This document shows, piece by piece, positions 5,340 to 53,065 of a DNA stretch of 64,000 nt. The position numbers were made by a program, and so were the translations under genes. The notes beneath the pieces were generated by a model. It worked only from the letters and a program-made list of their open reading frames with translations. It was not told the DNA's origin and did no database searches. Numbering within the stretch: position 1 is the stretch's first letter; each line of letters starts with the position of its first letter. Origin of the DNA: a virus; the IMG/VR virus record IMGVR_UViG_3300033233_000009, positions 32,001 to 96,000 of that record; one strand, given 5' to 3'.

Positions 5340-5343
5340 TCCC

Positions 5344-12590: not shown

Positions 12591-12616
12591 CGGTGGCGTG
12601 GGCGGCGCGGGAAGCT
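12579..12616 (+). promoter_or_regulatory. Promoter CCGAAAAC-TTGACG-N18-GAAGCT
   Basis: 17-nt identity with the 8552-8568 site; 7 nt before ATG. Confidence 0.6.
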
Positions 12617-12623
12617 ATCGACC

Positions 12624-13217
12624 ATGAGCTACCACGTGAACCCGATCGCCCGGAGCCTGCCTCGCCTCGGCGCTCGGTCCGTCGGAGGGCTCGGTACGGT
12701 GGCCCCGCCTCCGGTGCTCCACGCGGCGCCGCGCCCGCTCACCGCCGCGGACTGGGCGAACATCGCGGCCTACGCGAAGGCGGTCAAGGCGGCCGAGGCA
12801 GCGAAGGTGACCGCGCCGCCCCCGCCCACGACCGTGCCGGTGGTGTCGCTCGCGACGCTGGTCAGCAAGCTCCAAGCGAAGGGCGCGACCCCCGACGAGG
12901 TCGGCTACTTCCAGGCGTGCATGACCGACAAGCTCGGCGACAAGCCGCCCACGGCGTGCGAAACGGAGGCTCGGAGCCTGGCAAAGCTCTCGGCGGAGGG
13001 GCTCGCGTTCTACAAGTCGTGCGCGAGCCAGCGCGCCGCGGACATGCCGGTCCGCACGCAGCACTCCGCGTGCTACGGCGAGGCGCTCAAGATCGCGAGC
13101 GGCGGCGCGGCGCCGGATGGCGGTGGCGCGACGACGACCGCCGGCATGGGCACCACGAAGTGGCTGCTGATCGGCGGCGTCGCGGTGGCGCTCTACTTCC
13201 TCGTGATCCGCAGGTAG
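12624..13217 (+). CDS. Cys-containing membrane-anchored protein
   Basis: PPVLHAA.RPLTA.DWANI module, 4 Cys, C-terminal TM. Confidence 0.6.
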   Translation: MSYHVNPIARSLPRLGARSVGGLGTVAPPPVLHAAPRPLTAADWANIAAYAKAVKAAEAAKVTAPPPPTTVPVVSLATLVSKLQAKGATPDEVGYFQACMTDKLGDKPPTACETEARSLAKLSAEGLAFYKSCASQRAADMPVRTQHSACYGEALKIASGGAAPDGGGATTTAGMGTTKWLLIGGVAVALYFLVIRR

Positions 13218-13227
13218 GAGGCTTCCG

Positions 13228-13452
13228 ATGGCCTTTGCGACCAGCGCCGACGCCGTGCAGAGCGGCGTGTTCCGTGCTCGGACCCGAGCGGTCGCGCCGG
13301 CACCCGTGCCGCAGCCGGTGGCCCTGGTGCTGGCCCCCGCTCCCGCAACGCCGCCGCCCGCCCCCGCCGCGGGGGGCTTCCGCTCCTGGTGGTGGCTCGC
13401 CCTGCTTGCAGCAGGTGGCTACCTCGTCTGGCGCCAGCGAACGAAGCGGTAA
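13228..13452 (+). CDS. Small Pro-rich protein with C-terminal TM
   Basis: GGAGG RBS; WWWLALLAAGGYLVW plus RQRTKR. Confidence 0.6.
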   Translation: MAFATSADAVQSGVFRARTRAVAPAPVPQPVALVLAPAPATPPPAPAAGGFRSWWWLALLAAGGYLVWRQRTKR

Positions 13453-13655
13453 CCGTTCAGGCCGCCGGCCCCGGCCGGGAGCGTCTGCGCAGCAACCCAG
13501 GTGAGCGCGAACACCTCGATGAGACCCGCCGCGACGAGCGCCTGCAACGCGACGTTCCGTCGGCCGCCCGCGAGATAAATGCCGGTGGCGACGAGGGATG
13601 CGCGGAGGAGGGCGGTCCCCATGACGCCCCAGAAGGCCCCGGGGACGCCGTCCAC
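13419..13655 (-). CDS. Possible small membrane protein, the only plausible minus-strand gene
   Basis: Two hydrophobic stretches; start uncertain. Confidence 0.35.
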   Translation of the reverse strand: MDGVPGAFWGVMGTALLRASLVATGIYLAGGRRNVALQALVAAGLIEVFALTWVAAQTLPAGAGGLNGYRFVRWRQTR

Positions 13656-13747
13656 GAACTGGATGGCGGCACGGGAGGACGGAAGCTCACGCGGGTCCGG
13701 TCCGGCATTGGCCCCCCAAGATTAGCCGGCCACCATTTTTCGGTGCA

Positions 13748-13782
13748 GAAAAGTTGACGGGCTGTTTTCTCCTGGGTAGCTT
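13748..13782 (+). promoter_or_regulatory. Promoter GAAAAG-TTGACG-N17-TAGCTT upstream of the core/capsid operon
   Basis: Sigma70-like hexamers in an AT-richer intergenic region. Confidence 0.6.
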
Positions 13783-13860
13783 CACCATCGACCCGTAGGA
13801 GCCAGCCGTACTTTCGAGGCCGCTGGGCACACCGCGCTAAGCGCGGAGGTATGCCCGAAG

Positions 13861-15891
13861 ATGGCCAGAACAATCGGCAAGGCGTTCAAGATCGGCAAGA
13901 AGGACGTGAAGTCCTACGGCTACGCCACGCCGAACCGCCGCGCGGGTGGCCGCATGACGGCGAACGCCGGGGTGACGGCCATCGCGGCCATCAACGGCCC
14001 CGGGGCACACGCTCGGCACCACCGGGGCGTGAGCGCGCGGGCGGCCATGAACGGTCTGTCGCGCGAGGAGCGCCTCGCGCGGGCTCGCAAGATCACCGGC
14101 GCTGACCGGGCGGCGTTCGCGCGCCGCATGGGTGCCGCCACGAAAACCAGAGGAACAACCATGCGAACGAACGCCAGTCCAGCGCAGATCGCGGCCGCAC
14201 GCCGCAACATCAAGAAGGCCATCGCTGCCCGTCGGGCAGGCGGTCATCGCCCGAACCTGCGTCCGATGCGGTTCGGTCGCCCGCTGGGCCGGCCCGGGCT
14301 GCGTCCGAACACCTGGCCCGGCGAGGTCCGTCGGCACGAGCACGCCGCGGCGCGCGGCTGGGCTCTGCGTACCGGGTCCCGTCCGCCGTTCGCCTCGACG
14401 CTGGGCACGGCGGCCAGGCGACGGAAGAAGAAGAAGCACACGGCCAACAGCCGGAGGAAGAAGACCATGAGAACCCATCGCCGGAACTTCAGCGCGAAGC
14501 AGCGGGCTGCCGCGCTCCGCAACCTCCGCAAGGCACGTGCCGCGCGGAAGCACCGCCCGAACGCCCGGAAGACGCGGAGCCGCCGGAAGGCGCACCGCCG
14601 CAACGGGCTGGTGTCGAACAAGCGGCGCGTCGCGCGGCGCAGGAGCCACCGCAAGAACTTCAGCGCGAAGCAGCGGGCCGCCGCGCTCCGCAACCTGCGC
14701 AAGGCGCGCGCGGCGCGGAAGCACCGCCCGAACGCCAAGCGGCGTACGGCTCGCCGGAGCCACCGTCGCAACGGCCTGGTCTCGAACAAGCGGCGCACGC
14801 ACCGCCGGAACTTCAGCGCGAAGCAGCGGGCTGCCGCGCTCCGCAACCTCCGCAAGGCACGTGCCGCGCGGAAGCACCGCCCGAACCGGAAGCACCGCCG
14901 GAACACGCACCGCAAGGCGCACCGCCGGAGCCACCGCCGCAACGGCCTGGTCTCGAACGGAGCATTCCGTCGCAACCAGTTCCTCGCGACGGCCAAGGCG
15001 GTCCTCAAGATCGGCGCGATCACCACGGCGGGCTTCGTGGCGCACAAGGCCGTCACCAAGGTCTTCACCGACCAGATCCTCGACCGCATCCTCGGGTCGA
15101 GCGGCGCGGCCTCCCCGGCCAAGCCGGCGGCGGCGAGCGGGCTCGAAGCGCTCCAGCCCTACCGGAGCATCATCGGCGGCGCCGCAGTCGCGGCGGCCGG
15201 CGTGTTCCTGGCCAACAAGGTGGTCAAGGACACGCAGACCAAGATGTTCCTCACGGCCGGCATCGCGACCTCGCTCGTTCACTCGATCGCGGTCGTCGCG
15301 CTGGCGAAGCTCGCTCCGTCGTACTCCGGCTACCTGTCCGGCGACGGAACGGCAGCCAACATCTCGGCCATGTACGGCTTCGGTGCGGGCGCGAGCATCA
15401 TGCCCGAGTACCACCCGATCAACGGCCTGGGCGAGTACTTCGCGCAGAACGGCCTGGGCGAGTACTTCGCGCAGAACGGCCTGGGCGAGTACTTCGCGCA
15501 GAACGGCCTGGGCGCGTACACGAGCAACCCCGACCTGATGCAGGCGGCGGCGGGCTACGGCGTGGTCGAGAACCAGAACAGCAACATCGTGGACCCCGGT
15601 GGTGACCTCGACGCGCAGCTTTCGATCGCGGAAGCGGCGGCGGGCGTCGGCGCGGTGCCCTACGAGGCGGCAGCCGGCTTCGGCCGGGTGCAGCCGTTCG
15701 AGGCGAGCGCGGGCTACGGCGGCTTCGGTGCGGTGAGCACCGTGCCGCCCACGGCCGACACCTGGATCCCCGGCTCGTCGCACGGCCAGCTCTGGGCAGG
15801 CACCCGCGACATCACCGCGGGCCAGTCGGCCCACGAGATGGTGAGCGCCGGGATCATGGAGACCGGCGGCAACCAGGGGGTCTTCGGCTGA
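13861..15891 (+). CDS. Arg/Lys-rich protamine-like core protein with TM segments and NGLGEYFAQ repeats
   Basis: 3x HRxNFSAKQRAAALRNLRKARAARKHRPN; central hydrophobic segments; acidic Gly-rich C-terminus. Confidence 0.7.
   Translation: MARTIGKAFKIGKKDVKSYGYATPNRRAGGRMTANAGVTAIAAINGPGAHARHHRGVSARAAMNGLSREERLARARKITGADRAAFARRMGAATKTRGTTMRTNASPAQIAAARRNIKKAIAARRAGGHRPNLRPMRFGRPLGRPGLRPNTWPGEVRRHEHAAARGWALRTGSRPPFASTLGTAARRRKKKKHTANSRRKKTMRTHRRNFSAKQRAAALRNLRKARAARKHRPNARKTRSRRKAHRRNGLVSNKRRVARRRSHRKNFSAKQRAAALRNLRKARAARKHRPNAKRRTARRSHRRNGLVSNKRRTHRRNFSAKQRAAALRNLRKARAARKHRPNRKHRRNTHRKAHRRSHRRNGLVSNGAFRRNQFLATAKAVLKIGAITTAGFVAHKAVTKVFTDQILDRILGSSGAASPAKPAAASGLEALQPYRSIIGGAAVAAAGVFLANKVVKDTQTKMFLTAGIATSLVHSIAVVALAKLAPSYSGYLSGDGTAANISAMYGFGAGASIMPEYHPINGLGEYFAQNGLGEYFAQNGLGEYFAQNGLGAYTSNPDLMQAAAGYGVVENQNSNIVDPGGDLDAQLSIAEAAAGVGAVPYEAAAGFGRVQPFEASAGYGGFGAVSTVPPTADTWIPGSSHGQLWAGTRDITAGQSAHEMVSAGIMETGGNQGVFG
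14476..14886 (+). repeat. Three copies of an ~80-bp coding repeat
   Basis: aacttcagcgcgaagcagcggg...cggaagcaccgcccgaac recurs three times. Confidence 0.85.
15421..15514 (+). repeat. 27-bp tandem coding repeat, ~3.5 copies (NGLGEYFAQ)
   Basis: aacggcctgggcgagtacttcgcgcag x3 plus partial; 26 nt of the array recur at 22205-22230. Confidence 0.9.
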
Positions 15892-21955: not shown

Positions 21956-22360
21956 ATGTCGCTCAATCAGATGGCGTACCAGTCCGGCGTGCTCGGGGCC
22001 CTGCCCCCGGCTCCCGCCTTCCGCTCGGGCTCGCTCGGCGTGCTCGGCTTCGTGCCGCCGGTGTCCGGTGCGGTGCGCTCGGGCTCGCTCGGCATCCTGG
22101 GGGCGCCCCCACCGAGCGGCGCCGTGAAGTCCGGCGTGCTCGGCACGCTCGGTGGCGGCCCGCCTCCCTCCGGTGCGGTGCGCTCCGGCTCGCTCGGTGT
22201 ACTCGGCGAGTACTTCGCGCAGAACGGCCTCGGTGCCGATGCGGTCGTGATGCCCACCGCGGTGGGGCCGAAGCCCGCCATGGCGACCCTCACCATGGCC
22301 ATCGCTGGCCTGGGCGCGGTCGCCGCGATCTGGTGGGCCATGACCCGCCGGCACGCCTGA
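21956..22360 (+). CDS. Repetitive membrane protein (SGAVRSGSLG repeats, GEYFAQNGLG, C-terminal TM); carries the self-protospacer
   Basis: Internal repeats; shares a DNA motif with the core protein gene. Confidence 0.7.
   Translation: MSLNQMAYQSGVLGALPPAPAFRSGSLGVLGFVPPVSGAVRSGSLGILGAPPPSGAVKSGVLGTLGGGPPPSGAVRSGSLGVLGEYFAQNGLGADAVVMPTAVGPKPAMATLTMAIAGLGAVAAIWWAMTRRHA
22153..22188 (+). other. Protospacer identical to CRISPR spacer 5
   Basis: tggcggcccgcctccctccggtgcggtgcgctccgg at both 22153-22188 and 33554-33589 (36/36). Confidence 0.95.
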
Positions 22361-30442: not shown

Positions 30443-30720
30443 GCGTCACGACGATCACTGGGCTGTTGCTCGCTGCCGCGTGGGGTTGGTTGGGCTACCG
30501 CCACGGGCGACGGAGCGGCATCCGGGCCGAGCGGCTGCGCGTGCTCTACGGCATGGACGTCGCCTTGAACCTCCTGTCGAGCCCGGCGCTCCACTACCTG
30601 AACGGCTGGATTCGCGGGGACATCGACGAGGACTATCTCCGCGCCGGGGTCCGCGACTACGCGAAGCGGAAGCAGGAGAAGCACGAGGCGGAGCGCAAGC
30701 AGTGGAGGGGGCCACTATGA
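30439..30720 (+). CDS. Small protein with N-terminal TM
   Basis: ATGA overlaps at both ends. Confidence 0.55.
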   Translation: MSVTTITGLLLAAAWGWLGYRHGRRSGIRAERLRVLYGMDVALNLLSSPALHYLNGWIRGDIDEDYLRAGVRDYAKRKQEKHEAERKQWRGPL

Positions 30721-31112
30721 GCCCGACTGCTGCCGCTGAGGCCGCGGAGCTACGCGCCGCCGAGCTAGCGCTCGGGAACCTGCCCGAGCGAGCGCTCACG
30801 CTGCTGTACCGCTCGCTCGTGCAGAACCGCCACCTGAGCCCGCTGGAGCACCCGGCCCGGCCGATGACCGAGTGGGAGCTGGACGCCTTCCGTCAGGTCG
30901 AGGCGGAGTTCTTCACGCCGGACGGCACGCGCACGCTGCGCGTTGCCCCGGCCTTCGTGGACGCGGTGAACGCCGGGAACGTCCCTGTGCGACTGACGGG
31001 CACGCCTCGGGATGTCTACTACTGCGGAAATTACAACGGCTGGGTCCAGCTACGGAAGCTGATCCCCGGCGAAGCGGTGTACGTGGACACGGAAAGAAAG
31101 GATCGAACATGA
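30717..31112 (+). pseudogene. Stand-alone fragment homologous to the C-terminal part of ThyX
   Basis: HLSPLEHPARPMT..GNYNGWVQLRKLIPGE vs HLSPLEHVARPMT..GNYDGWVQHRKLVPGE in 36517-37764. Confidence 0.65.
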
Positions 31113-33226
31113 AACGTCGAACGTCCCAAGCATTGGTCGGTATCTGGACTGGATTCGCACGGCCGCCCGTGGAGGGGGCCGCTCTGGTGCGGCGAGAGCT
31201 GGAGAAGGCGCACGACTACTACAACCAGATCGTGCAGTTGGAGCTGGACAGGCGGACCCTGTACCGCGCTGCGCGCGGGACGGTCGGGGAGACCCTCACC
31301 GCCCTCCAGGCGGAGATGGACGCGCTGAACGAGAAGATCACGGCGGAGGTCGGCGGCCTGCGCGCAGTGCGCCAGGCGGCGCGGACGCGCGTCGAGGATC
31401 CCGCGGCGAGTGCCAGGATCAAGGCGGTGAAGGAGGAGCGGCGGGCGCTCGCCGAGCGGCTCAAGGCGGCGCGCGCGGAGGCCGAGAAGGTCTACGGGCC
31501 GGGCAACGAGGAGCTGAGCCAGCGGAGCGCCCGTCTGGCGGAGGGGAACACGGCGTCGCGCATCCGGGAGAAGACGAACCGCGCGGCGCTGGAGGAAATG
31601 CTCACGGAGCCGGAGTGGGCTGACGAGTGGAAGATGGTCGCGCGGATCAATCACGACGCGAACGAGGTGAAGAAGCAGATCCGGGCCGCCTGTGGCCTCA
31701 CCCCCGGCACGTACCTGCTGGTCGAGAAAGCGGTCGAGGCTGCGTTCGCGCCGCCGCCGAAGGGGCGGCCGCCGCGGCCCGACCCGCGCCCGAAGGAGCG
31801 GTTCATCGGCGAGGGGCGCCTCGGTGTGCAGGTGCACCGGCTGCCGGTGGCAGACCTGCTGGCGGGTCGCAACGGGCAGATCGCCCTGCGCATGAGCGAC
31901 CGGCTCCCGAACGGAGCGAAGGCGGCGCAGCGGTACGGCACGCTGCGCATGCGGGTCACCACCGACGGTCAGTACGCCGAGTTCCCGGTGAAGCTCCACC
32001 GGCCACTGCCGCAGGACGGGTTCATCACGCAAATCTGGATCCGCGCAGAGCGGCAAGGACCGCGGACGCTGTATTCGCTCCAGTGCGTCGTGGAGTCGCC
32101 GCAGTGGGCGAAGCCTGGCCCGGTCGAGGGTGCCGGGACGATTGCCATTGACACCGGCTGGCGCGTCATGGATGGCGGCATCCGGGTGGCCTACTGGATG
32201 GACGACCACGGGCGGCACGGGCAGCTCCTCGTCCCGGAGGGGGTGCGGAAGGCGATCGACTACGCCGACGTGCTGCGCGGCCGGGCGGACGATCACTTCA
32301 ACGCCGCGTGCGCGGAGTTGCGCGCGTGGATGGTCGCCAACCCGGGGCACGTCCCGGCCTGGATGCAAGCCGCGACGGCGACGATGCCGTACTGGCGCGC
32401 GCACGGGAATCTCATCCGGGTGGCCCGGCGGCTGGGGGCCGACCACGGCCTGTGGAAGCAGTGGCGCATCGACCGGAAGGCGGCGGGGCTCGACCTGTTC
32501 GGCACGTTCGCGGAGGTGAGCGCGTGGCTCCAGCAGAGGCATGCCGCGACGACGGCCCCCGTCCACCCGCTCATGCAGATCGCCGTCTACCTGGAGTGGT
32601 GGCGGCGGAAGGACGCGCACCTCTACGACTGGGAGATCCGCGAGCGGCGCTACGCCGAGAACGCGCGGACCGAGATGTTCCGCAAGGTCTGCCAGGTCGC
32701 CCGGCAGTACGAGCACGTGCTGGTCGAGAAGATCGACCTGCCGAAGTTCGCCAAGAACGCCTCGGCCGAGGAGAAGGTGAACCGGGACTGGCTGCACCGG
32801 GTGGCGCGCATCGCATCGCCCGGCGACCTCGCCGCACGGCTCATGGAGACGTGCAAGGGGCAGGCGGAGAAGATGGCGCCGCACAACAACACGCGCACGT
32901 GCCACAAGTGCGGTCACGTGAACAATGCGTGGGAGCGGCAGGCGGATAGGGTCCAGACCTGCGCGGGGTGTGCGGCGAGCTGGGACCAGGACGAGAACGC
33001 TTGCCGGGTGATGCTGGCGCTGTGGCACGGGCATGCGCCCGGTGGCGAGCGCGAGCGGTCGGGTGATGCACCGACCACGGCACCCGCTCGCAGCGCGGAA
33101 AACAAGCCCGCTCGCAGCGGGGAAGTGGCAGATCGGCAGCCCACGGGGTCTTCCGATCTGGGGCGCCCGAGGGACCGCTCGCAAGGCGGTCGCCAAGGGC
33201 CCGAAAGGATAGCAGGGCCCGGATGA
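31109..33226 (+). CDS. cas12m: Compact type V CRISPR effector (~705 aa), Cas12m/V-U1-like, TnpB-derived
   Basis: RFIGEGRLGVQ, LHRPLP, RuvC-I IAIDTGWR, RuvC-II VLVEKIDL, Zn finger CHKC..CAGC, RuvC-III WDQDENA; directly adjacent to the CRISPR array. Confidence 0.8.
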   Translation: MKRRTSQALVGIWTGFARPPVEGAALVRRELEKAHDYYNQIVQLELDRRTLYRAARGTVGETLTALQAEMDALNEKITAEVGGLRAVRQAARTRVEDPAASARIKAVKEERRALAERLKAARAEAEKVYGPGNEELSQRSARLAEGNTASRIREKTNRAALEEMLTEPEWADEWKMVARINHDANEVKKQIRAACGLTPGTYLLVEKAVEAAFAPPPKGRPPRPDPRPKERFIGEGRLGVQVHRLPVADLLAGRNGQIALRMSDRLPNGAKAAQRYGTLRMRVTTDGQYAEFPVKLHRPLPQDGFITQIWIRAERQGPRTLYSLQCVVESPQWAKPGPVEGAGTIAIDTGWRVMDGGIRVAYWMDDHGRHGQLLVPEGVRKAIDYADVLRGRADDHFNAACAELRAWMVANPGHVPAWMQAATATMPYWRAHGNLIRVARRLGADHGLWKQWRIDRKAAGLDLFGTFAEVSAWLQQRHAATTAPVHPLMQIAVYLEWWRRKDAHLYDWEIRERRYAENARTEMFRKVCQVARQYEHVLVEKIDLPKFAKNASAEEKVNRDWLHRVARIASPGDLAARLMETCKGQAEKMAPHNNTRTCHKCGHVNNAWERQADRVQTCAGCAASWDQDENACRVMLALWHGHAPGGERERSGDAPTTAPARSAENKPARSGEVADRQPTGSSDLGRPRDRSQGGRQGPERIAGPG

Positions 33227-33229
33227 CGG

Positions 33230-34886
33230 GTCGCCAAGGCAGCGCGGGGCCTTCGACGCCGCGACCCGCGCGTCCGTCCATGCGTAGTGCGCGCCGCTGG
33301 GTCGCCAAGGCAGCGCGGGGCCTTCGACGCCGCGACCCGCTGCCGCTCGCCGGGGCCGGCTCGGAGGAGCTGCCGTCGCCAAGGCAGCGCGGGGCCTTCG
33401 ACGCCGCGACGCGCGATCGACGTCCTTCCGCGCGGCCTCCACCTTGTCGCCAAGGCAGCGCGGGGCCTTCGACGCCGCGACTGTGCGCCCGTTAGTCTAC
33501 TCCATGCGCCTCCGGCGGTCGCCAAGGCAGCGCGGGGCCTTCGACGCCGCGACTGGCGGCCCGCCTCCCTCCGGTGCGGTGCGCTCCGGGTCGCCAAGGC
33601 AGCGCGGGGCCTTCGACGCCGCGACAACGAGGCGCCGCCCGACGGCATCGACGACATCGCGGAGGAGGTCGCCAAGGCAGCGCGGGGCCTTCGACGCCGC
33701 GACTGGGGCAGGGAGCCGGATCGGGTGTATGCTTGGGCTTGGGTCGCCAAGGCAGCGCGGGGCCTTCGACGCCGCGACTGCTCTCTCTCTCTCCTTCTCT
33801 ATTTTTCTCCTCTCTCTGTCGCCAAGGCAGCGCGGGGCCTTCGACGCCGCGACGCGTGCTCCGTGTCGGGGGACGGCTCCTCCGTTGCGTCAAGTCGCCA
33901 AGGCAGCGCGGGGCCTTCGACGCCGCGACGACAGGCGCTTCGGGAGCACATGATTCGCGAGCTGGGTCGCCAAGGCAGCGCGGGGCCTTCGACGCCGCGA
34001 CAAGCCGGTTTGGTCCTCCCGGCTGGCGGCCCTGCTCGGGTCGCCAAGGCAGCGCGGGGCCTTCGACGCCGCGACCTTTCCTGTTGGTGCGACGGGCACG
34101 GAGACCCGTCCAGTCGCCAAGGCAGCGCGGGGCCTTCGACGCCGCGACCTCCCGTGGACAGCCCCGTGTGCTTGGCAACTTCGAGGTCGCCAAGGCAGCG
34201 CGGGGCCTTCGACGCCGCGACTAGTCGCTCGGCTGCAGCAGCAAGTCGGAGAGGACGACGGTCGCCAAGGCAGCGCGGGGCCTTCGACGCCGCGACCTCG
34301 CAACATGCAGAGGGTCAGGGGACGCCCCTCGCCGAGGGTCGCCAAGGCAGCGCGGGGCCTTCGACGCCGCGACTATCCGCTCCGCCCGATCAGACGCTGC
34401 GCCCGTCGGAGTCGCCAAGGCAGCGCGGGGCCTTCGACGCCGCGACGAGATCCTCGGCGAGCAAGACCCGGTGGCCCCTCACCAGTCGCCAAGGCAGCGC
34501 GGGGCCTTCGACGCCGCGACCATCCCGCCCTGGAGTGAGTCCGACCTGCGCCACAAGGTCGCCAAGGCAGCGCGGGGCCTTCGACGCCGCGACGAGCACG
34601 CCGTCGGTGAAGAGGCGGATTTCTACTTCGTCGCCAAGGCAGCGCGGGGCCTTCGACGCCGCGACCGAGGGTCCGAGTGGAGCTGGGGTCGCTGATGCCG
34701 GAGTCGCCAAGGCAGCGCGGGGCCTTCGACGCCGCGACCGGGGCTGGATACTGTGACAATCGCCCGGGCAGCAATGCATGTCGCCAAGGCAGCGCGGGGC
34801 CTTCGACGCCGCGACCCGTGCTTGCCGACGAGGATGCGGCGCGCGTCGGAGTCGCCAAGGCAGCGCGGGGCCTTCGACGCCGCGAC
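33230..34886 (+). CRISPR. CRISPR array: 23 x 36-bp repeat GTCGCCAAGGCAGCGCGGGGCCTTCGACGCCGCGAC, 22 spacers of 35-42 bp
   Basis: Counted directly; repeats appear identical; begins 3 nt after the effector stop; + orientation inferred from the 3' GAC and gene direction. Confidence 0.98.
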
Positions 34887-34910
34887 TGGTAAGCGCTGGC
34901 GGGGGGCGCC

Positions 34911-34939
34911 TTGACGCCGGTGCTGCCACCGGCTAAGGT
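34911..34939 (+). promoter_or_regulatory. Promoter TTGACG-N17-TAAGGT (leaderless)
   Basis: ATG 34946 lies 6 nt after the -10. Confidence 0.6.
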
Positions 34940-34945
34940 GCCGCC

Positions 34946-35155
34946 ATGTACCGTGACTTCGGGGAGAACATCCAATTCCCGCGTGGCGTCGCCGCAGAGG
35001 TCGAGAACCGGGCCGACGACGCGATCGTGCGCCTGTGCTTCACGACCCTGGAGCAAGGGGAGGCATGCGTGCAGACGCTGCGTGAGGCCGCCGACCGGAT
35101 GGAGAAGGAGCTGACGCTGTGGCGGAAGGCCCAGAGCGAGGGGAAGTGGCTGTGA
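34946..35155 (+). CDS. Hypothetical protein
   Basis: Follows the promoter; overlaps the next start. Confidence 0.55.
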   Translation: MYRDFGENIQFPRGVAAEVENRADDAIVRLCFTTLEQGEACVQTLREAADRMEKELTLWRKAQSEGKWL

Positions 35156-35349
35156 AGCTCGTCGAACGCTGGCCACTCACGATCCTTTACCTGCTGCTCC
35201 TCGGAGTGACGGCGGTTCTCGGAAGCGTCTTCGCGGCGATACTGTGGAAGCTGGGCCCGTGGTGGACCGGAGGGGGCCTGGTCGTCTCGATGTTCTGTGC
35301 GTTCGTGGAGATCGACCGACGGGCGCAGCGGCGAGGAGGACGGCGATGA
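35152..35349 (+). CDS. Small 2-TM protein
   Basis: Hydrophobic; coupled junctions. Confidence 0.5.
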   Translation: MKLVERWPLTILYLLLLGVTAVLGSVFAAILWKLGPWWTGGGLVVSMFCAFVEIDRRAQRRGGRR

Positions 35350-35615
35350 CTGAGGTTACTCTCCTCTGGAGCTTGGCATGCATCTTCACGGGGCTCGCAT
35401 GGTACCGGTACGGGCTTCGTAAAGGCCGCCGAGAGGTCCGCGATGCCGCGCTGACGGCCATCGTCTCCGCGCTGCACGAGGTGCGGACGAGAGAGGCAGT
35501 CGCGACGGTCGGCAGCCTCTACCGGGTCGTCGATGGCGAGTGGACCGACGAGCAGATGCGGGATCAGATACGGGCGATACAGTCGGAAACACGGGAGATC
35601 GGGAGGCAGCGATGA
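35346..35615 (+). CDS. Small N-terminal TM protein
   Basis: Similar layout to 30439-30720. Confidence 0.5.
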   Translation: MTEVTLLWSLACIFTGLAWYRYGLRKGRREVRDAALTAIVSALHEVRTREAVATVGSLYRVVDGEWTDEQMRDQIRAIQSETREIGRQR

Positions 35616-35917
35616 GGGGCTTGGCGTTAGGTCTGTTCAGCGTGCTCGGGGTCGTGATCATCGGGTCCATGGTCGTTGGAGTCCACGAACTGCTCGACCG
35701 CCTTGCGCGCGACGCGGCCGGCTCCTGCTGGGTGGACCCGCGCCCCGAAGTGCGACTCGACTTCGACTTCTACACCGGCATCGACGGGCAGCTGTCGCGC
35801 TGCGGGTACTCGCGGGGCACGCTGGGTAGGGCGCAAGCCATCGCTGGAGATCCGCGTGAGGGCTTCGTCGATGTCGTCCGCTGCTACCCGCTCGCCAGGA
35901 AGGAGTGCCCGAAGTGA
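35612..35917 (+). CDS. Small membrane or secreted protein
   Basis: N-terminal TM, Cys residues. Confidence 0.5.
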   Translation: MRGLALGLFSVLGVVIIGSMVVGVHELLDRLARDAAGSCWVDPRPEVRLDFDFYTGIDGQLSRCGYSRGTLGRAQAIAGDPREGFVDVVRCYPLARKECPK

Positions 35918-36162
35918 AGGTCGCGCTGAACATCGTGCTGTTCTCGGCATTCATCTTTCTCGGCTTCATGCTCGGGCGCGTCCACGAGATGAATGACCAC
36001 GCCGAGCGTGACGTGAAGGAGTGCTTCGCTTGCGGTCAGACGCAGGCGTGCGCATTCGGTCCCGGCATCGTTGGCGTGCAGTCGTGCGAGGTCGGCTACA
36101 AGTGGGGCCGCTGCGAGCCGGACCCGCGGTTCAAGGTGCCGCGCGAAGGAGAGGTCAAGTGA
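35914..36162 (+). CDS. Small Cys-rich membrane protein
   Basis: TM then C..C....C..GVQSC..WGRC. Confidence 0.5.
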   Translation: MKVALNIVLFSAFIFLGFMLGRVHEMNDHAERDVKECFACGQTQACAFGPGIVGVQSCEVGYKWGRCEPDPRFKVPREGEVK

Positions 36163-36238
36163 CCCAGACCGAAGAAGAAGCCACGCAGAAGTACGCGCGT
36201 GAACTGGACGTGCGAACCGTCGGGAGCATCCGGTACTG

Positions 36239-36520
36239 ATGCGCGAGCGAACGATCCTCGCGCCAGGTGCCTACGCGGTGCCGCTGGCGGACTACCCGAA
36301 GTGCAAGCACTGCGGCGCGCTCAAGTACGCGGTCTTCGACGCGTCGCCCGGCGGCTTCAGCGGCGGCTCGGAGCACATCCACGCCCCGCACTGCCCCGAG
36401 CTTCGGTGCGAGCACGGCGTCCTCTGGGCCTACGAGTGCGAGAAGTGCGAGGCCGCGGACGAGGCACGCAGGAAGCAGGAAGCGGAGTTGTCCCGGTTCC
36501 GGGACGAGGAGTACCAATGA
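36239..36520 (+). CDS. Zinc-finger-like hypothetical protein
   Basis: CKHC, CEHG, CEKC. Confidence 0.5.
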   Translation: MRERTILAPGAYAVPLADYPKCKHCGALKYAVFDASPGGFSGGSEHIHAPHCPELRCEHGVLWAYECEKCEAADEARRKQEAELSRFRDEEYQ

Positions 36521-37764
36521 GCTACGACGCGAAGATCCTGGCAGACTCGATCACGGAGCACGGCGAGCGCCTGACCACGTTCGAGGTCACGTTCCCGCGC
36601 ATCGTGCTCGCTGAAGTGAATACGCACCGGATGCTGAGCCGGAACAGCGCCTCGTCCCGGGCCACCCCGGTCGCGAAGAAGATCGCGCAGATCGAGGTCG
36701 ATCCGTTCATCCCGGCGGCGTTCATCAAGAACCAGAAGGGGATGCAGGGCGCGGAGGCGCTGGACGACGCCATGGCGCTGGAGGCCGAGGCGTGGTGGCG
36801 GCAGGGAGTGACCGGCGCGCTCAGTGTCGCCAGGGCGCTGTCCGGCGCGGGGCTACACAAGGCGCTCGCGAACCGCGTGCTCGAACCCTACGCCTGGCAC
36901 ACCGCTATCCTGTCGGCGACCGACTGGTCGAACTTCTGGCACCTGCGTGTGAACCCGGACGCGCAGGGGGAGTTCCGCACGGCGGCGGAGATGATGCTCG
37001 CGCTCTACGAGAAGCACGAGCCGACGTTGCTCGGGGACGACGACTGGCATCTGCCGCTGGTATCGGAGGAGGAGCGCGACGCCGCGCTGCCAGGTACGCC
37101 GGCAGAGGTGCATGCAGCAGATCAGCGCCTCGTGAAGATCAGCGTGGCCCGTTGCGCTCGCGTCTCGTACCTCACGCACGACGGAGTCCGGGACCAGGCG
37201 GAAGACCTGGCTCTCTACGAGAAGCTCGTCACGGGCGGCCACCTGAGCCCGCTGGAGCATGTGGCGCGGCCGATGACGACCTACGAGCGAACACGGTTCG
37301 AGCAGATCCCTCACATGTGGGACGGACGTGTCTGGATCTGGGCAGGCCAGCGGACGACGCACTACCTCGGCAACTACGATGGGTGGGTCCAGCACAGGAA
37401 GCTCGTCCCCGGCGAGGCGGACATCCTCGGGTACCGAGCGCGAGTCGAGAAGGACTGCGAGCAGATGGGGGCCATGTGCGCCGCGTACGAGGAGAAGTTC
37501 AAGATGCAGCGCGAGATCGTCTGCGCTGCGCAGGACTGGCGGAAAGAGGACATGGATCGGGAGGCAGAGGCGCACGAGGAGACGGGACGCGGCCTGCTCG
37601 ACACGCTCGCCGACGCCGTGGACGCTCTGAACGAGTGGGTGAAGGAGCGCGCCGCGGAGCGCGCGGGGTCGTTCACCTGTCCGACCTGTGGCCCCCACGT
37701 CAAGGCGGACGAGGACGGATGCTGCGCGACGTGCGGCGCGGATTGCAAGATGGAGGGCGCGTGA
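36517..37764 (+). CDS. thyX: Flavin-dependent thymidylate synthase with C-terminal extension
   Basis: FPRIVLAEVNTHRMLSRNSASSRA, HK..ANRVLEP, NFWHLR..AQ.E, SVARCARVSY, HLSPLEH. Confidence 0.85.
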   Translation: MSYDAKILADSITEHGERLTTFEVTFPRIVLAEVNTHRMLSRNSASSRATPVAKKIAQIEVDPFIPAAFIKNQKGMQGAEALDDAMALEAEAWWRQGVTGALSVARALSGAGLHKALANRVLEPYAWHTAILSATDWSNFWHLRVNPDAQGEFRTAAEMMLALYEKHEPTLLGDDDWHLPLVSEEERDAALPGTPAEVHAADQRLVKISVARCARVSYLTHDGVRDQAEDLALYEKLVTGGHLSPLEHVARPMTTYERTRFEQIPHMWDGRVWIWAGQRTTHYLGNYDGWVQHRKLVPGEADILGYRARVEKDCEQMGAMCAAYEEKFKMQREIVCAAQDWRKEDMDREAEAHEETGRGLLDTLADAVDALNEWVKERAAERAGSFTCPTCGPHVKADEDGCCATCGADCKMEGA

Positions 37765-37961
37765 ACGAAGGCCCGAAAGTCCGTGTCGAGGCGTCCTGCT
37801 CGGACTGCGTCCACTGTCGGAACGACAGGTACGTGTGCCAGGGCGACTCCGGCTTCGACGTCTCGTGCGGACATCCCGACGTGAAGGGTGACCGGCGCAT
37901 CGGGGACACGACGTGGAAGACGCCTGCGTGGTGTCCGTTCCTGGGAGGACAGCAACCGTGA
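37761..37961 (+). CDS. Small Cys-rich protein
   Basis: CSDCVHC..C..PAWCP. Confidence 0.5.
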   Translation: MNEGPKVRVEASCSDCVHCRNDRYVCQGDSGFDVSCGHPDVKGDRRIGDTTWKTPAWCPFLGGQQP

Positions 37962-38287
37962 CCGACGAGGAGTGGGCTGCCTCAATCGTGAACGTGGATC
38001 TGCTGGAGGCCTACGCGGAGTCGGCAGCGGCGCTGGGCACTACGGACCTAGTCATGTGTCTCAACGTCGCGGAAGACGGCCTCGTGGCTTTCCGGCGCGA
38101 AAAGCTCCAGGCCGACTGGCGCAAACTGTTCCCGGATCCGAGCACCTTCTCGAAGCAGCTGTCGGAGCCCGCGACCGATCACACCGCTCTGCAGATGGCC
38201 TTCTGGTTCGTCGTGCAAGCGCCTGGTGGCGTCGTGTGCATCGCGGTGGGTTGCCAGCGTGCGCCACGAAAAGCAGCGACGGCCTGA
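37958..38287 (+). CDS. Hypothetical protein
   Basis: GGAGG RBS, GTGA overlap. Confidence 0.5.
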   Translation: MTDEEWAASIVNVDLLEAYAESAAALGTTDLVMCLNVAEDGLVAFRREKLQADWRKLFPDPSTFSKQLSEPATDHTALQMAFWFVVQAPGGVVCIAVGCQRAPRKAATA

Positions 38288-38313
38288 GTACGGGAACCAC
38301 CGAAGGAGAGAGC

Positions 38314-39519
38314 ATGGAGCACGAGCAGACGACGAACGATGACCTGAACGACCACGCGGTCGAGCGGGCGATGCGCGAGGACGCGGAGGCCAACGACCCG
38401 GTCAACCACCCGAAGCACTACCGGAGCCACCCGAGTGGCGTGGAGTGCATCACCGTCGTCGAGCACTTCAACTTCAACCGCGGGAACGCCATGAAGTACA
38501 TCTGGCGCGCCGGGGAGAAGGGCGACGTGATCGAGGATCTGAGGAAGGCCGCGTGGTACGTACAGCGCGAGATCGAGCGGCTGACGCGACCAGCGGTACC
38601 CGTCCCTGACGTGCATGTCGCGGCGTCACCGGAGACGATCGACGAGGTGCTGGCCCCGGCCGGCCCGATCACCTGCCTCGTCTGCAACTTGACGTTCGGC
38701 ACCGCGGAAACATTCCAGGCGCACCGCGAGATGGTCCACGGCGAGGAGGAGATCCCGCCGGCCCTGGACTGCCCCATCTGCCGCGCCCTCGCGCGGATGC
38801 CAGGGACTGACTGGATCTGCGCGCACCACAAGAAGACTCCCGCCATCGACTCCACGTGCGATGGCGTTCTAGCCGGTGCCGGCCACGGTGGAGAAGACCG
38901 GCGCTCTGACGCGGCGCTGTTCGCCGGTGGCGAGGAGGATGACGGGTGGGACCCGATGGACCTGGAGCGCGCGCTGGATCGAGCGCGGCTGGTGGAAGTC
39001 GGCTCGCGCCGATTCATCAACAGCGTGCGCGGGCTGCGATCTGTGATCGTGGCGCTGCTGCGAGCGTACACGACGGTGCAGGCACTGGAGCACCAGGAGG
39101 CTGCGAAGGCGGCCGAGCGGCTGACCGTGCAGCTAACGGCACGGACAGCGAAGCTCGAACACGTGGAGACCGAGATGACCGCCGCCTACGCGGCTGCCGG
39201 CATCAGCGACATGGAGAACCTGGCGAGGCACATCACCCGGCTGCGCACCATGGCAGCGAGCGCGGAGGACTACCGCGACCGGGCAACCGTCGCGCAGGCG
39301 GAACGACAGACCGCCGAGGCCCGTCGTGGTTCCCTGCTGGCGCTCGTCGAGCGCGTCGGCGCACTACTCGCGTACCTGGACGGCCGCTGCCGCTCGGACG
39401 GCTCCGAGAACGAGACGGAACGCGCCGCGCTCAACGCCTACGGCTACGTGCGCGCACGGTTGCAGTCCGCCATGGCCGCGCTGCCGCAGGATCTGCGGGA
39501 AGAAGCGTGCGGCGCGTGA
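38314..39519 (+). CDS. DUF3310 domain protein with zinc-finger and coiled-coil extension
   Basis: DPVNHPKHY..GVECI..FNRGNAMKYIWRAGEKG..EDLRKAAWY. Confidence 0.8.
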   Translation: MEHEQTTNDDLNDHAVERAMREDAEANDPVNHPKHYRSHPSGVECITVVEHFNFNRGNAMKYIWRAGEKGDVIEDLRKAAWYVQREIERLTRPAVPVPDVHVAASPETIDEVLAPAGPITCLVCNLTFGTAETFQAHREMVHGEEEIPPALDCPICRALARMPGTDWICAHHKKTPAIDSTCDGVLAGAGHGGEDRRSDAALFAGGEEDDGWDPMDLERALDRARLVEVGSRRFINSVRGLRSVIVALLRAYTTVQALEHQEAAKAAERLTVQLTARTAKLEHVETEMTAAYAAAGISDMENLARHITRLRTMAASAEDYRDRATVAQAERQTAEARRGSLLALVERVGALLAYLDGRCRSDGSENETERAALNAYGYVRARLQSAMAALPQDLREEACGA

Positions 39520-39521
39520 AG

Positions 39522-39557
39522 CAACCCAAGGCAGCGCGGGGCCTACGACGCCGCGAC
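39522..39557 (+). CRISPR. Orphan degenerate CRISPR repeat
   Basis: caacccaaggcagcgcggggcctacgacgccgcgac: 31/36 identical to the array repeat, 31 of the last 32. Confidence 0.9.
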
Positions 39558-39575
39558 AAGGTCCAATCCACCCAG

Positions 39576-39604
39576 TTGACAGCAGCGGCAGCACGCTGTA
39601 CGCC
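39576..39604 (+). promoter_or_regulatory. Promoter TTGACA-N17-TACGCC
   Basis: Consensus -35; 8 nt before ATG 39613. Confidence 0.55.
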
Positions 39605-39612
39605 TACAGAAG

Positions 39613-39990
39613 ATGACCGACGACGACGCCAAGAGCCCCAAGGCCCCCGCTCCGCTGAACCGCCAGCAGCGCCGCGCCCTGAAGCGCGGCCGGATGAAGC
39701 TGATCGAGGGCGGCAAACCGGCGGACGCCCCGTCGGTGGACATGAGCCAGCCGGCCGGGCGCTTCGCCTACCACCTGCACGAGTTCATCGTGCGGTACTT
39801 CGCGGCAAACCCGGATCTGGAGCGCACGGCGGCGTGCGCGGCCGCGTTGCAGATCGCGGCGAAGTTCGCTGTCGAGCTGGGCGGGGACACCGATCAGTTC
39901 GCCATGGCGGCGTCGCACTTCTTCGACGGCGAGGCCGCGGCGCGCCGGAAGCCGGGCGGCGGTACGCCTGGGCCGGGCAGGGCAGGATGA
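39613..39990 (+). CDS. Hypothetical protein
   Basis: Follows the promoter; NRQQRR motif. Confidence 0.6.
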   Translation: MTDDDAKSPKAPAPLNRQQRRALKRGRMKLIEGGKPADAPSVDMSQPAGRFAYHLHEFIVRYFAANPDLERTAACAAALQIAAKFAVELGGDTDQFAMAASHFFDGEAAARRKPGGGTPGPGRAG

Positions 39991-39997
39991 GCGCGCC

Positions 39998-41314
39998 ATG
40001 AGCGAACCGCGACCGGAACAGCCGACCATCCCAGCCGAGGACTACTTCGGCCCGGGGGACGCCGCGACGTACGACTACGGTGTCCTGTACCAGGCGGAGT
40101 GGGAGACGCCGTGGGACGCGACGGCCATCGCTGCGCGCCTGCACGCGCGGGCGCTGGCGGCGCAGGGGGTCCCGGTGCTGCTCAAGTCGTTCTCGGGCAT
40201 CATCGTGAACGACGCGGGGATCCCCGAGCCCGTGTTCGCGCCGGGGGGCCTGCCGGACGTGGTGAAGGCCGAGGTCGGCACGCTGCCCGACACGTCGATC
40301 CGTACGCTGGCCGTCTTGCTCCGGCACATGGTGGTGCACGGCCAGGGCACGCTGGAAAACCATCTGATGCCGCGCCAGGTGGTGGCCTCCGACCCGGAGC
40401 TGCTGCTGGCCCTGCGGCGCGCGGTGTACGACTCGACGATCACCTACACGGTCTGGGAACGGGACCGCGTGGCACCCGGCATTGCGGCGCAGCTTGCCCG
40501 GTGCGGGCAGGCGTGGGTCCCCTGCCACCAGAACGCGGCGATGCTGATCCGGTCGGGCGTGCCGGCGGAGAAGGTCCACGTCGTGCCGCACCCGTACGAG
40601 CCGAGCGACCCGATCTGTCGGCTGGTCGAGCGGCGGCCGTTCGCGGAGCGCCGCTTCTACACCATCGGGCGCTGGGAGCCGCGCAAGGGCCTGCATGAGC
40701 TGGTCGGCGCGTTCCTGGAAGCGTTCCGGCCGGGCGACGACGTCCGGCTCACGATCAAGACCAGTCCGGGCACGTGGAGGGGGTACCCGACGCCCGAGGA
40801 GAGCCTCGCCGAGTGGCTCAAGCGGTACGACTACTGGCGGAACCCGGAGACGATGGCGGCGCACCTCACGGTGGACACGCGGCGGTACCCGCGGAGCAAG
40901 ATCCTGAAACTGCACTTCGACCACAACCTGTACGTCTCCGCGTCGCATGGAGAAGCGTGGGCCCTGGGGGCATTCGAGGCGAAGCTCGCGGGCAATCGCG
41001 TGGTGCACGTGCCGTATGGCGGCACGGCGGACTTCTGCGAGCCGGAGGACGTGCCGGTGGCCTACGGTATGGAGAAGGTGCACCCGAGCTACGGCTGGGA
41101 GCCCGACGCCGAGTGGGCGAGCGTCACGAGTGAGGCGCTCGTGCGCGCGCTGCGCAAGGCGACGCCGCCTGTCGCGTTCGCGCGGCCGGCGCACTACGAG
41201 CGCGTGTTCGGCTTTCCGGCCGTCGGGCGGCAGATGGCCGACTTGATCCTCAAGCGGCTTGACGGAGTGGACCCAAAGGCGGCCGCGTGGCTGCGGGAGC
41301 GGGTGAAGACATGA
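39998..41314 (+). CDS. Glycosyltransferase, GT-B/GT4-like
   Basis: YTVWE, WVPC, VVPH, IGRWEPRKG, YVSASHGEAWAL..EA. Confidence 0.85.
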   Translation: MSEPRPEQPTIPAEDYFGPGDAATYDYGVLYQAEWETPWDATAIAARLHARALAAQGVPVLLKSFSGIIVNDAGIPEPVFAPGGLPDVVKAEVGTLPDTSIRTLAVLLRHMVVHGQGTLENHLMPRQVVASDPELLLALRRAVYDSTITYTVWERDRVAPGIAAQLARCGQAWVPCHQNAAMLIRSGVPAEKVHVVPHPYEPSDPICRLVERRPFAERRFYTIGRWEPRKGLHELVGAFLEAFRPGDDVRLTIKTSPGTWRGYPTPEESLAEWLKRYDYWRNPETMAAHLTVDTRRYPRSKILKLHFDHNLYVSASHGEAWALGAFEAKLAGNRVVHVPYGGTADFCEPEDVPVAYGMEKVHPSYGWEPDAEWASVTSEALVRALRKATPPVAFARPAHYERVFGFPAVGRQMADLILKRLDGVDPKAAAWLRERVKT

Positions 41315-41574
41315 AGATCGCGAGCGAGCAGGACGAGTCAAAGAAGGATGCACTGCTCCTGGCGGTGCACGCCGTGAGCACGCAGGCATACGGGGACCTC
41401 GTGCTGCGGCTGGGCCTGGAGCCCGAGGATGCTGTTGGCCTGATCGGGATGGCGATGTTCGAGGAAGCGGCGGCGATGACGCAATCCCATCGGCTGTCGC
41501 GGGAAGAGTTCCTGACGGCAGCGGGTCTGTGCTGGGACGCAGTGGCCGCGGTGCGCGAGAAGGGGGCAGCGTGA
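41311..41574 (+). CDS. Hypothetical protein
   Basis: Coupled junctions. Confidence 0.5.
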   Translation: MKIASEQDESKKDALLLAVHAVSTQAYGDLVLRLGLEPEDAVGLIGMAMFEEAAAMTQSHRLSREEFLTAAGLCWDAVAAVREKGAA

Positions 41575-42152: not shown

Positions 42153-42427
42153 CGAGGCTGACCCGAGAGGAAGCGATCCAGAAGATGCGCGAGGGGCAGA
42201 CCGTGCGCCACGTGACCTGGGCACACGGTGCCGTCATCTTCATGGAGGACGCTGCCGGTCGAGATCCGTGGCTGGTGCGGCGTGAGCGGCTCTCCGACGC
42301 TTTGAAAAGCACGCCCAACGGGGGCAACGGGCTCAACTGGGAGGTGGTGCTCAAGCCCTGTGAGCCGGAGGAGGAGCCCCGGTGTGGCGCCATCCCGGCA
42401 GCGGTGGCGACGAAGGCGGGGTCGTGA
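42149..42427 (+). CDS. Hypothetical protein
   Basis: Coupled junctions. Confidence 0.5.
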   Translation: MTRLTREEAIQKMREGQTVRHVTWAHGAVIFMEDAAGRDPWLVRRERLSDALKSTPNGGNGLNWEVVLKPCEPEEEPRCGAIPAAVATKAGS

Positions 42428-43545
42428 CGCCCACGGTCCGCCTCTACGGCCGCGTGCTCGGCTACGGATCGCACGCGCAGGTCACGGATGGATTTGCCGG
42501 CGTGCTGCGCGACGCGGACCTGCTCGCCGGCATCGTCGCGTTCGATCGCGACCTGCCGCCCGACTCGCCCCAGCCCGGCGGCGCGCTCGCGCCGCATGCC
42601 GTATTCACCGGGCCACTCGGCCACCTGCGCGCCATGCGGAGCGGTGCGCGCCACCGGGCACGGTACGCGATGCTGGCACCGAACAGCTCGGCGGTGCCCC
42701 CGCTCCTGCTCCGGGCGCTGGAGAGCGAGTGCACGGAAATCCTCGTGCCGTCGGAGTGGGCGCAGGAAGTCGTCGAGGAGCTGACAAGCATTCCGGTGCG
42801 CGTCGTGCCGCACGGCATTGCCCCGGGGTTCGTTCGGAGCCCGTCCCTGCGCGAGGTGGCCGCGGAGGCGTATCGACGTGGCGCCTTCAACGTGCTGCAC
42901 CTGTCGTCGAGTGACCGGGAGCGCAAGGGCACGCACGCCTTGCTGGAGGCGTGGGGGATGCTGATGGCGAAGGGGGAGCTGCCCGCGGAAGCGAAGCTCC
43001 GCCTGGTGCTCGACGTGGAGGCGCTCTCGAAGACCGTGGCGTGGATGGCGGAGCGTGCGGGGCCAGGTATGCGCCTCGATTCCGTCACGGTGACGGCACG
43101 GCTGGAGGCGCGTCCGACAGCGCTCGCGCAGGTCTACGGCGTGCAGCACGTCGTGTGCCAGCCCTCACGTGGGGAGGGCTTCGGCTGCTGCCCCCTCGAA
43201 GGGCTCGCGTGCGGGGTGCCGATCGTGGCCACGGCCTGCACGGGGCATTCGCAGTGGTTCCGCCCTCTCAGTCTTCAGCCCAGCCTCCCGGGCGCCGTGC
43301 GGGTCGAGCATGGCCCGGACGCGCGAATCGACGACCTGCCGGGGGCCATGGCGCCGACGGTCGAGCCCGACGCCGTTGCGGTGGCGCTGCGGCGCGCGTA
43401 CGCGGAGTGGGAGGCGCTCGACGCCGCGGCTGCATCCGGGGCCGCGGCCCTGCGCGAGACCTGGGCGTGGGGCAGACAGATCGCGCCCTTCGTGGAGTAT
43501 CTGCGTCAATCGGACGCCAACCAGCAGGAGACGACGACCCCATGA
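42424..43545 (+). CDS. Glycosyltransferase, GT4 family
   Basis: LVPSEW, VVPHGI, RKG, PSRGEGFGCCPLEGLACGVPIVAT (EX7E). Confidence 0.9.
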   Translation: MTPTVRLYGRVLGYGSHAQVTDGFAGVLRDADLLAGIVAFDRDLPPDSPQPGGALAPHAVFTGPLGHLRAMRSGARHRARYAMLAPNSSAVPPLLLRALESECTEILVPSEWAQEVVEELTSIPVRVVPHGIAPGFVRSPSLREVAAEAYRRGAFNVLHLSSSDRERKGTHALLEAWGMLMAKGELPAEAKLRLVLDVEALSKTVAWMAERAGPGMRLDSVTVTARLEARPTALAQVYGVQHVVCQPSRGEGFGCCPLEGLACGVPIVATACTGHSQWFRPLSLQPSLPGAVRVEHGPDARIDDLPGAMAPTVEPDAVAVALRRAYAEWEALDAAAASGAAALRETWAWGRQIAPFVEYLRQSDANQQETTTP

Positions 43546-53010: not shown

Positions 53011-53065
53011 GCGCCGCTGGCGTTGACAGCACTGCTGCCGCCTGATAGGACAGGGAGGTAAACCG

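Follow-up and report, generated by a model that had tools for sequence, protein, structure and literature searches.

Does a single CRISPR repeat standing directly ahead of a phage operon regulate that operon, or is it what an array left behind? The question is posed by a 36-nt unit at 39522..39557 (+ strand) of a 64,000-nt stretch of DNA, referred to as the window, which covers positions 32001-96000 of the virus record IMGVR_UViG_3300033233_000009 (positions are those of the window unless marked otherwise). The unit lies between a DUF3310 gene and a promoter-like element that precedes an operon with a glycosyltransferase gene, downstream of an array of the same repeat and its Cas12m-like effector gene. 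A sequence-only reading had proposed a regulatory mini-CRISPR RNA (mini-crRNA), a decoy or an mRNA processing site. We consider it reasonably probable that the unit is instead a trailer-end repeat left stranded by the Cas12m-like array that the phage itself carries, yielding at most a by-product crRNA.

The solitary unit consists of CAAC followed by 32 nt and is 31/36 identical to the array repeat, differing from all 23 array copies at positions 1-4 (CAAC for GTCG) and at position 24 in the loop (A for T). It begins 2 nt past the DUF3310 stop codon, ends 18 nt ahead of a TTGACA hexamer, and starts 4,635 nt after the end of the last array repeat, on the same strand as the array. The coordinates and anatomy given by the sequence-only reading, namely a near-perfect repeat 4.6 kb from the array with this 2-nt and 18-nt spacing, a conserved 3' part and four divergent first nucleotides, were thus confirmed, and the loop change T24A is to be added. 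When the 20-nt 3' core was searched in the window with at most three mismatches, 24 matches were obtained (the 23 array repeats and the orphan) against 0.10 expected (largest number 2 in 100 shuffles), which excludes chance. By codon-position G+C the unit region is intergenic. A scan between the DUF3310 stop and the next gene found no terminator-like site, and no promoter-like site was found upstream of the unit. No Rfam family was matched (best E 0.94), and a special fold of the whole intergenic region was rejected (z-score -0.44).

The repeat belongs to a system that resembles type V-M. The effector (705 aa, 31109..33226, + strand) matched the structure 23vw_A, 'DNA-binding protein Cas12m', in a phmmer search of the PDB with an E value of 7.5e-37 in three stretches spanning residues 19-638, and Cas12m2 (8hio/8hhl) with 1.7e-12 over residues 278-637. 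Pfam gave only a weak, sub-threshold match to the Cas12f1-like TNB domain, and the RuvC-position residues are D/E/D in the alignment. The array (33230..34886, + strand) begins 4 nt past the effector stop; its 36-nt repeat occurs 23 times without variation, and its 22 spacers measure 35-42 nt. Like Cas12m2, GoCas12m and MsCas12m, the system combines a homologous effector with a 36-nt repeat that has a predicted 3' stem and a possible pseudoknot, an array on the effector strand and one TTG-flanked protospacer, and a search for Cas1 across the record found none. The window effector, which is known from sequence, is phage-borne and larger than the solved ones (~577-614 aa). A protein search found relatives at 47-71% identity, among them the proteins P0002-P0007 at 63-71%, the closest being P0002 (71%), and one cultured relative at 25.8%.

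A probable origin of the unit emerged from a DNA comparison with five metagenome loci encoding effectors at 58-66% identity and 15 viral loci at 25-32%. In three of these loci (L025, L027 and L028) the order is homologues of the window genes at 30056 and 30439, ThyX, an orthologue of the DUF3310 open reading frame (ORF), a promoter-like site, effector and array. In L028, the closest relative that has this junction, with an effector 66% identical in amino acids to that of the window, the array has 15 repeats; behind it come a further spacer, a terminal repeat whose 3' half is lost, the same promoter-like element (GTTGACAGCAcCGGCAGCgCGCTGTAC) and then the operon. The latter consists of orthologues of the window genes at 39613 (84% amino acid identity), 39998 (81%), 42424 (74%) and onward. 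In the window, a ThyX fragment precedes the effector, a full ThyX gene and the DUF3310 gene follow the array, and one repeat lies at the old junction of array and operon. The fragment (30717..31112, + strand), immediately 5' of the effector gene, encodes a ThyX-like C-terminal part and appears to be a relic of the ancestral gene order. It matched the ThyX ORF of L025, L027 and L028 by tblastn (residues 23-130, same frame), and L025 and L028 have the whole ThyX gene at this place. DNA patches shared between the fragment and the full window gene (at 37224-37420) are 78-81% identical.

Array polarity and repeat variants agree with this picture. L028 and L025 have, relative to L027, one extra spacer at the effector-proximal end, which makes the promoter-side end the old (trailer) end of the array. 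The solitary unit sits at this trailer end, in array orientation, where the array of L028 ends. Its A24 is found in every repeat of L028 and L029, in contrast to the T24 of the 23 window repeats, and it begins at the 5' side with CAACCC, as does the last unit in the long degenerate array of L026. Finally, in L037 (a complete 179-kb record) the operon follows a different gene after ~25 nt, with no repeat in between. The synteny with L028, the ThyX fragment, the array polarity, the old variants and the repeat-free operon of L037 together identify the unit as a stranded trailer-end repeat, an origin that we regard as well supported by sequence comparison. It shares with a terminal repeat the strand, the old-end side, the older variants and a position homologous to that of the L028 terminal repeat; unlike such a repeat, it has 4,635 nt of genes, and not a single spacer, between itself and the array. 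A recombination remnant was what the sequence-only reading had named as evidence against its own proposals, and this is largely what we found, given that the homologous site in L028 is a degenerate array end and that the L037 operon has no repeat.

Two DNA sediment runs, and no RNA run, are listed with the region 33100-40100, and their contigs agree with the sequence. A 35,320-nt contig from a separate assembly of a public run covers 35295-40100 with 0 differences, which means that an assembly error in this record alone does not account for the junction; the run may be the source sample.

The arrangement suggests the following course of events. The ancestral order, kept in L028, would have been ThyX, the gene at the DUF3310 position, effector, array, terminal repeat, promoter-like element and operon. 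In the phage studied here, effector and array would have shifted ~5 kb upstream to a place behind the ThyX fragment, with ThyX and DUF3310 now after the array. A single repeat would have been left at the old junction, beside the conserved promoter-like element, and would not have been built to regulate that promoter. We infer the order of the rearrangement and its path, which could have been a duplication with a deletion or a recombination of phages with one another. Where transcripts read through from the DUF3310 gene, the effector would probably bind and cut them just past the stop codon, giving a crRNA-like RNA with the guide AAGGTCCAATCCACCCA.., for which our searches found no target. From the comparison with L037, the effector cassette seems to move between sites. 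The L037 record (G010) has an effector homologue elsewhere, at 146568-148400 on the minus strand, and none of this repeat family.

Several observations weigh against an origin as mere array debris. The orphan is far better preserved than the L028 terminal repeat: it is degenerate only in its first four nucleotides and one loop base, whereas the L028 repeat is degenerate in its 3' half, and its positions 5-36 differ by one base from the window array repeat and by two from that of L028. The adjoining 18 nt share nothing with L028, and such preservation beside a diverged flank fits either a recent event or selection. The proposed path is drawn from one close relative type (L025/L027/L028). Moreover, the record contains a second cluster of variant units which follows a 51-nt copy (94% identity) of the promoter-like element that trails the main array, and in which unit A carries seven transitions with the stem kept through a compensatory change. 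Two other phages, G002 and G004, have 13 and 4 single units, respectively, that are co-oriented and mostly intergenic, and a pure relic reading cannot explain these.

The second cluster lies outside the window, at record positions 106172-106329 (region 106172-106400, locus L009 ~5173-5400), on the minus strand. It directly follows a minus-strand operon, in a convergent intergenic region, and consists of three variant units A, B and C. Unit B is followed by a 14-nt spacer and unit C has a degenerate 3' end. Both have A24 like the orphan; unit A has C at position 24.

For the wider survey, eight other phages with this effector family were scanned over their whole records with the core of their own repeat, allowing at most three mismatches; G003 equals G002 in 7/7 compared 832-nt stretches and was counted with it as one phage. 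Solitary, co-oriented, intergenic units were present in three of the eight, and the remaining five (G005 to G009) have arrays only. In G002, all 23 core matches lie on the strand of 206 of the 224 called genes; 8 belong to the array, at the record ends, 2 are by the effector and 13 are singles, of which 10 are fully intergenic in a genome with 14.5% non-coding DNA. Several of these singles lie 6-49 nt past a gene end, 4-14 nt ahead of an ATG or 11 to ~95 nt before a promoter-like site, and their would-be guides have no clear target in the G002 genome. In the complete record of G004, the 11 matches occupy a single strand; the array accounts for 7 of them, and the 4 singles are all intergenic (4/4). 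G001 has one single, with a compensatory stem change. Among the loci compared, L026 has a solitary unit at 8838-8873 on the minus strand, opposite to its array, upstream of the effector and among minus-strand genes, and L028 and L029 showed no solitary unit in the 14-18 kb examined. In the G002 loci L040, L044 and L046, a second short hairpin element, tCCGCCCGTACGGGCGGA, recurs beside solitary repeat units.

These patterns bring up the strongest alternative, that the orphan is an exapted working unit on RNA, where the effector would bind and cut its own read-through transcript. The ThyX-DUF3310 message would then have its 3' end set by the unit, 2 nt past the stop codon, and the unit may also serve as an insulator or boundary mark towards the next operon. 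It would on this view be one of a wider class of solitary units, intergenic and co-oriented, in Cas12m-like phages. The predicted structure would allow this. The repeat is predicted to fold into a 3' hairpin CGCGG..CCGCG followed by AC, which is kept in the orphan. For AAGGC at positions 7-11, the loop offers GCCU(U) as a possible pairing partner, and both strands are kept in the orphan as in the arrays of relatives. The predicted scaffold of stem and AAGGC/GCCU pairing resembles the pseudoknot-plus-stem of Cas12m2 (PMC10442227). Over 29 repeat variants, which vary in columns 1-5, 8, 12-13, 24-26 (loop) and 35-36, it is 97.7% paired, with only one compensatory pair, and 30 of 500 shuffles do as well.

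Processing of such a scaffold has precedents. MsCas12m cuts pre-crRNA within the repeat (PMC11013384). For Cas12m2, crRNA nucleotides -36 to -30 were omitted from one of the final structural models, and cutting occurs upstream of the scaffold (PMC10442227). One repeat alone suffices for a working guide in a different phage type V system (bioRxiv 10.64898/2026.04.20.719267). Because the scaffold is kept, Cas12m effectors cut in or upstream of the repeat and a single repeat can serve as a guide source, the orphan would probably be bound and cut by the effector if it is transcribed. Of the proposals in the sequence-only reading, a crRNA-like RNA or processing site is therefore made plausible by the intact pseudoknot strand, stem and 3' end, whereas a guide directed at the promoter is not.

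The evidence on an RNA-level function is divided. All solitary units seen in this record and in L026 are co-oriented with local genes (orphan on the + strand, second cluster and L026 unit on the minus strand), and the one-strand distribution, intergenic preference and gene-end or pre-ATG positions in G002, with the similar strand bias in G004, point the same way, as does the lack of a terminator-like site in the scan between the DUF3310 stop and the next gene. On the other hand, L028 and L029 are without a solitary unit in the stretches examined, five of the eight other phages have arrays only, and the pattern of G002 and G004 is transferred by analogy, their effectors being 27-29% identical to the window effector. 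These two phages likewise keep solitary own-repeat copies that are intergenic and co-oriented with genes, but the window's record has one unit and one cluster of three, and the orphan has a simple origin as an array end. Positional homology with the array end also accounts for the placement without any function. We therefore see exaptation on RNA as a possibility worth retaining, though the less favored one. Equally tentative is an extension of this idea, by analogy, to a working 'repeat regulon' formed by the orphan and the 106.2-kb cluster, in which the effector would cut the phage's own messages at operon-boundary units. If true, it would set mRNA ends or control the next gene, besides array-based defense against rival phages. 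In the literature searched (supplements excluded), we found neither a CRISPR effector acting on self transcripts nor solitary units cognate to a phage's own Cas12m.

The main idea of the sequence-only reading was that the unit encodes a regulatory mini-crRNA, whose guide would send the effector to the adjacent promoter or to that at 53022 and repress it. The unit does end 18 nt before the conserved -35-like hexamer of a promoter-like element at 39576..39604 (+ strand), composed of TTGACA (39576-39581), a 17-nt spacer and TACGCC (39599-39604), with the ATG of the next gene at 39613. The motif GTTGACAGCA.CGGCAGC.CGCTGTAC is common to the window and L028, where it forms part of an alignment (99/126) extending into the gene. 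A strict sigma-70 scan of 33000-41500 returned 0 sites and did not accept the TTGACA/TACGCC pair; yet the element is conserved in L028 and TTGAC[AGC] sites recur in the record, and for this reason we call it promoter-like. Counting the one at 39576, the record has 16 TTGAC[AGC] sites that lie outside genes and no more than 150 nt ahead of a called gene start. Many TTGAC[AGC] sites lie 35-37 nt before an ATG, a spacing that suggests leaderless or near-leaderless messages. A site family of the form TTGAC[AG]-17 nt-TA... occurs across the record, e.g., at window positions 34911, 39576, 45038, 52446, 53023 and 60373, and several of its members have ..GGCAGCA.. in the spacer.

A mini-crRNA would suit an effector family that silences transcription by DNA binding (PMC11013384, PMC10442227), and the recurrence of GTTGACAGCA that the sequence-only reading had pointed out is real, at 53022-53031 before another gene. 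However, the geometry does not fit either promoter. Cas12m2 uses a 5'-TTG protospacer adjacent motif (PAM) and forms a 17-bp heteroduplex (PMC10442227). The cis site of the would-be guide is flanked by the repeat end (..CGAC) and not by a TTN-type PAM. A 17-bp heteroduplex, and thus the R-loop, would end at 39574, just short of the -35, and the part in common with 53022 occupies guide positions 18-27, beyond it. The 18 nt between unit and -35 (39558..39575, + strand; AAGGTCCAATCCACCCAG), which would be guide seed and body, have no second copy in the record at up to four mismatches, the first 12-18 nt have no second match, and the 8-nt seed was not found next to a PAM elsewhere in the record, the only other seed match being flanked by GGAG. 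Overlap with a promoter is not a shared feature of solitary units either, in view of the variable distances in G002. We consider a mini-crRNA acting on these promoters very unlikely.

An RNA anti-CRISPR (Racr) or related decoy would soak up the Cas12m of a host or rival, or adjust how much effector the phage itself has available. According to Camara-Wilpert et al. (2023, PMC10651486), Racrs are solitary repeat units of viruses and bind Cas proteins; they are described as having no association with cas genes, often stand right behind a promoter and mostly match the CRISPR type of the host. The orphan is likewise single, intergenic and viral with the repeat secondary structure predicted to be kept, and the second cluster of the record stands directly behind a promoter-like copy. 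But the orphan departs from Racrs in two defining features: this record also carries its cognate effector and the array of 23 repeats, 4.6-8.4 kb upstream, and the orphan follows a stop codon by 2 nt with no upstream promoter-like site found. Nor could a matching host system be identified, since an exact degenerate pattern of the repeat family gave 0 matches in prokaryote genomes (185,579 species, one genome each) and in other IMG/VR contigs, and two patterns gave 0 in viral_contigs. The decoy might also be a viral crlRNA, one of the crRNA-like regulatory RNAs (CreR/CreA in hosts; viral Cracr), whose spacer part matches a cas or toxin promoter at 9 or more PAM-proximal positions and which are listed for V-A and type I systems (bioRxiv 10.1101/2024.10.29.618823). 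Like them, the orphan is a repeat placed apart from the main array, and an RNA derived from it could load a Cas effector, here of a family that silences by binding; unlike them, its guide has no PAM-proximal match of at least 9 nt to any promoter. A decoy is accordingly a highly improbable explanation.

That the sequence after the unit serves as a fixed guide against a PAM-flanked site in a competitor or host lacking the unit, as would be in keeping with the targeting between related phages indicated by an L029 spacer (31/38, 5' TTG) and with the single-repeat guide of the other phage type V system (bioRxiv 10.64898/2026.04.20.719267), is very improbable, because the guide 18-mer gave 0 exact matches in viral_contigs (2.9 million viral contigs), the 20-mer gave one match in genome_contigs (596 Gb of prokaryote genomes), and the homologous place in L028 has unrelated sequence. 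This one match, in a Phycisphaeraceae metagenome-assembled genome, ends at 20 nt and has the flank GGCC; with about one expected in such a search, it was rated as chance and rejected as a target. The comparison of the downstream guide with virus and host genomes that the sequence-only reading had proposed, made here in viral and prokaryote contigs, produced no PAM-flanked target.

Taken alone, a stranded trailer-end repeat would be an instructive but ordinary product of array rearrangement, one that shows a phage-borne Cas12m cassette moving and leaving a repeat at a conserved promoter junction. It gains weight as one data point in a broader pattern, in which phages with Cas12m-like effectors often retain copies of their own repeat that are solitary, intergenic and co-oriented. 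Should such units be in use, the action of a DNA-binding CRISPR effector would extend to RNA of the phage itself, and a lone repeat would be a compact means of making a fixed guide or a processing site. Some solitary units can arise as array debris, and counts of them should be checked against synteny before they are called regulators.

The other targeting data come from the arrays. A spacer of L029 (L029 7769-7806) matches this record at 11490-11527 in 31/38 positions with a 5' TTG flank, the only cross-phage protospacer found and a hint of phage-against-phage targeting with a TTN PAM. Spacer 5 of the window array (33554-33589) has a 36/36 match to the phage's own gene 21956-22360 (site 22153-22188), with the 5' flank TCGG, not TTN. 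The 134-aa product of this gene has SG[SV]LG repeats and a hydrophobic C-terminal tail, and spacers 1, 4 and 5 are similar to one another. When the array was compared with 50,697 cultured-phage records in search of spacer targets, the only matches below E 1e-3 fell on repeat-like sequence. A candidate degenerate repeat right after array repeat 23 was rejected, as its local score of 24 was reached by 4.7% of random windows. In L026, the long degenerate array (12038-14089) is made up of 23 units; their loops vary, and some of the spacers are very short (7-23 nt).

The virus record is linear, 124,597 nt long, estimated to be 69% complete, has ~70% G+C and stems from sediment metagenomes; nearly all genes of the window are on the + strand. 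The 4,635-nt block between array and orphan (34887..39521, + strand) was annotated with gene calls by third-position G+C (GC3) and contains, besides small ORFs, a promoter-like TTGACG-17-TAAGGT after the array (34911-34939), a 69-aa ORF (34946-35155), the ThyX gene (36517-37764; Pfam Thy1, 6.9e-14) and the DUF3310 ORF (38314-39519, TGA stop at 39517-39519; Pfam DUF3310, 4.8e-12). Among 80 loci with DUF3310 relatives, 0 repeat-like units were found, and only L079 has a close orthologue (80%, residues 6-114). The downstream operon starts with a 125-aa gene of no Pfam family (39613..39990, + strand), 84% identical in amino acids to the post-array gene of L028 and 71% to its counterpart in L037, which no repeat precedes, and includes the glycosyltransferase gene at 42424-43545, assigned by Pfam. 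The window ORF 38314-39519 and its L028 orthologue (~900-2110) share their N- and C-terminal parts and differ in their middle domains (DUF3310 in the window), which looks like a domain swap between related phages.

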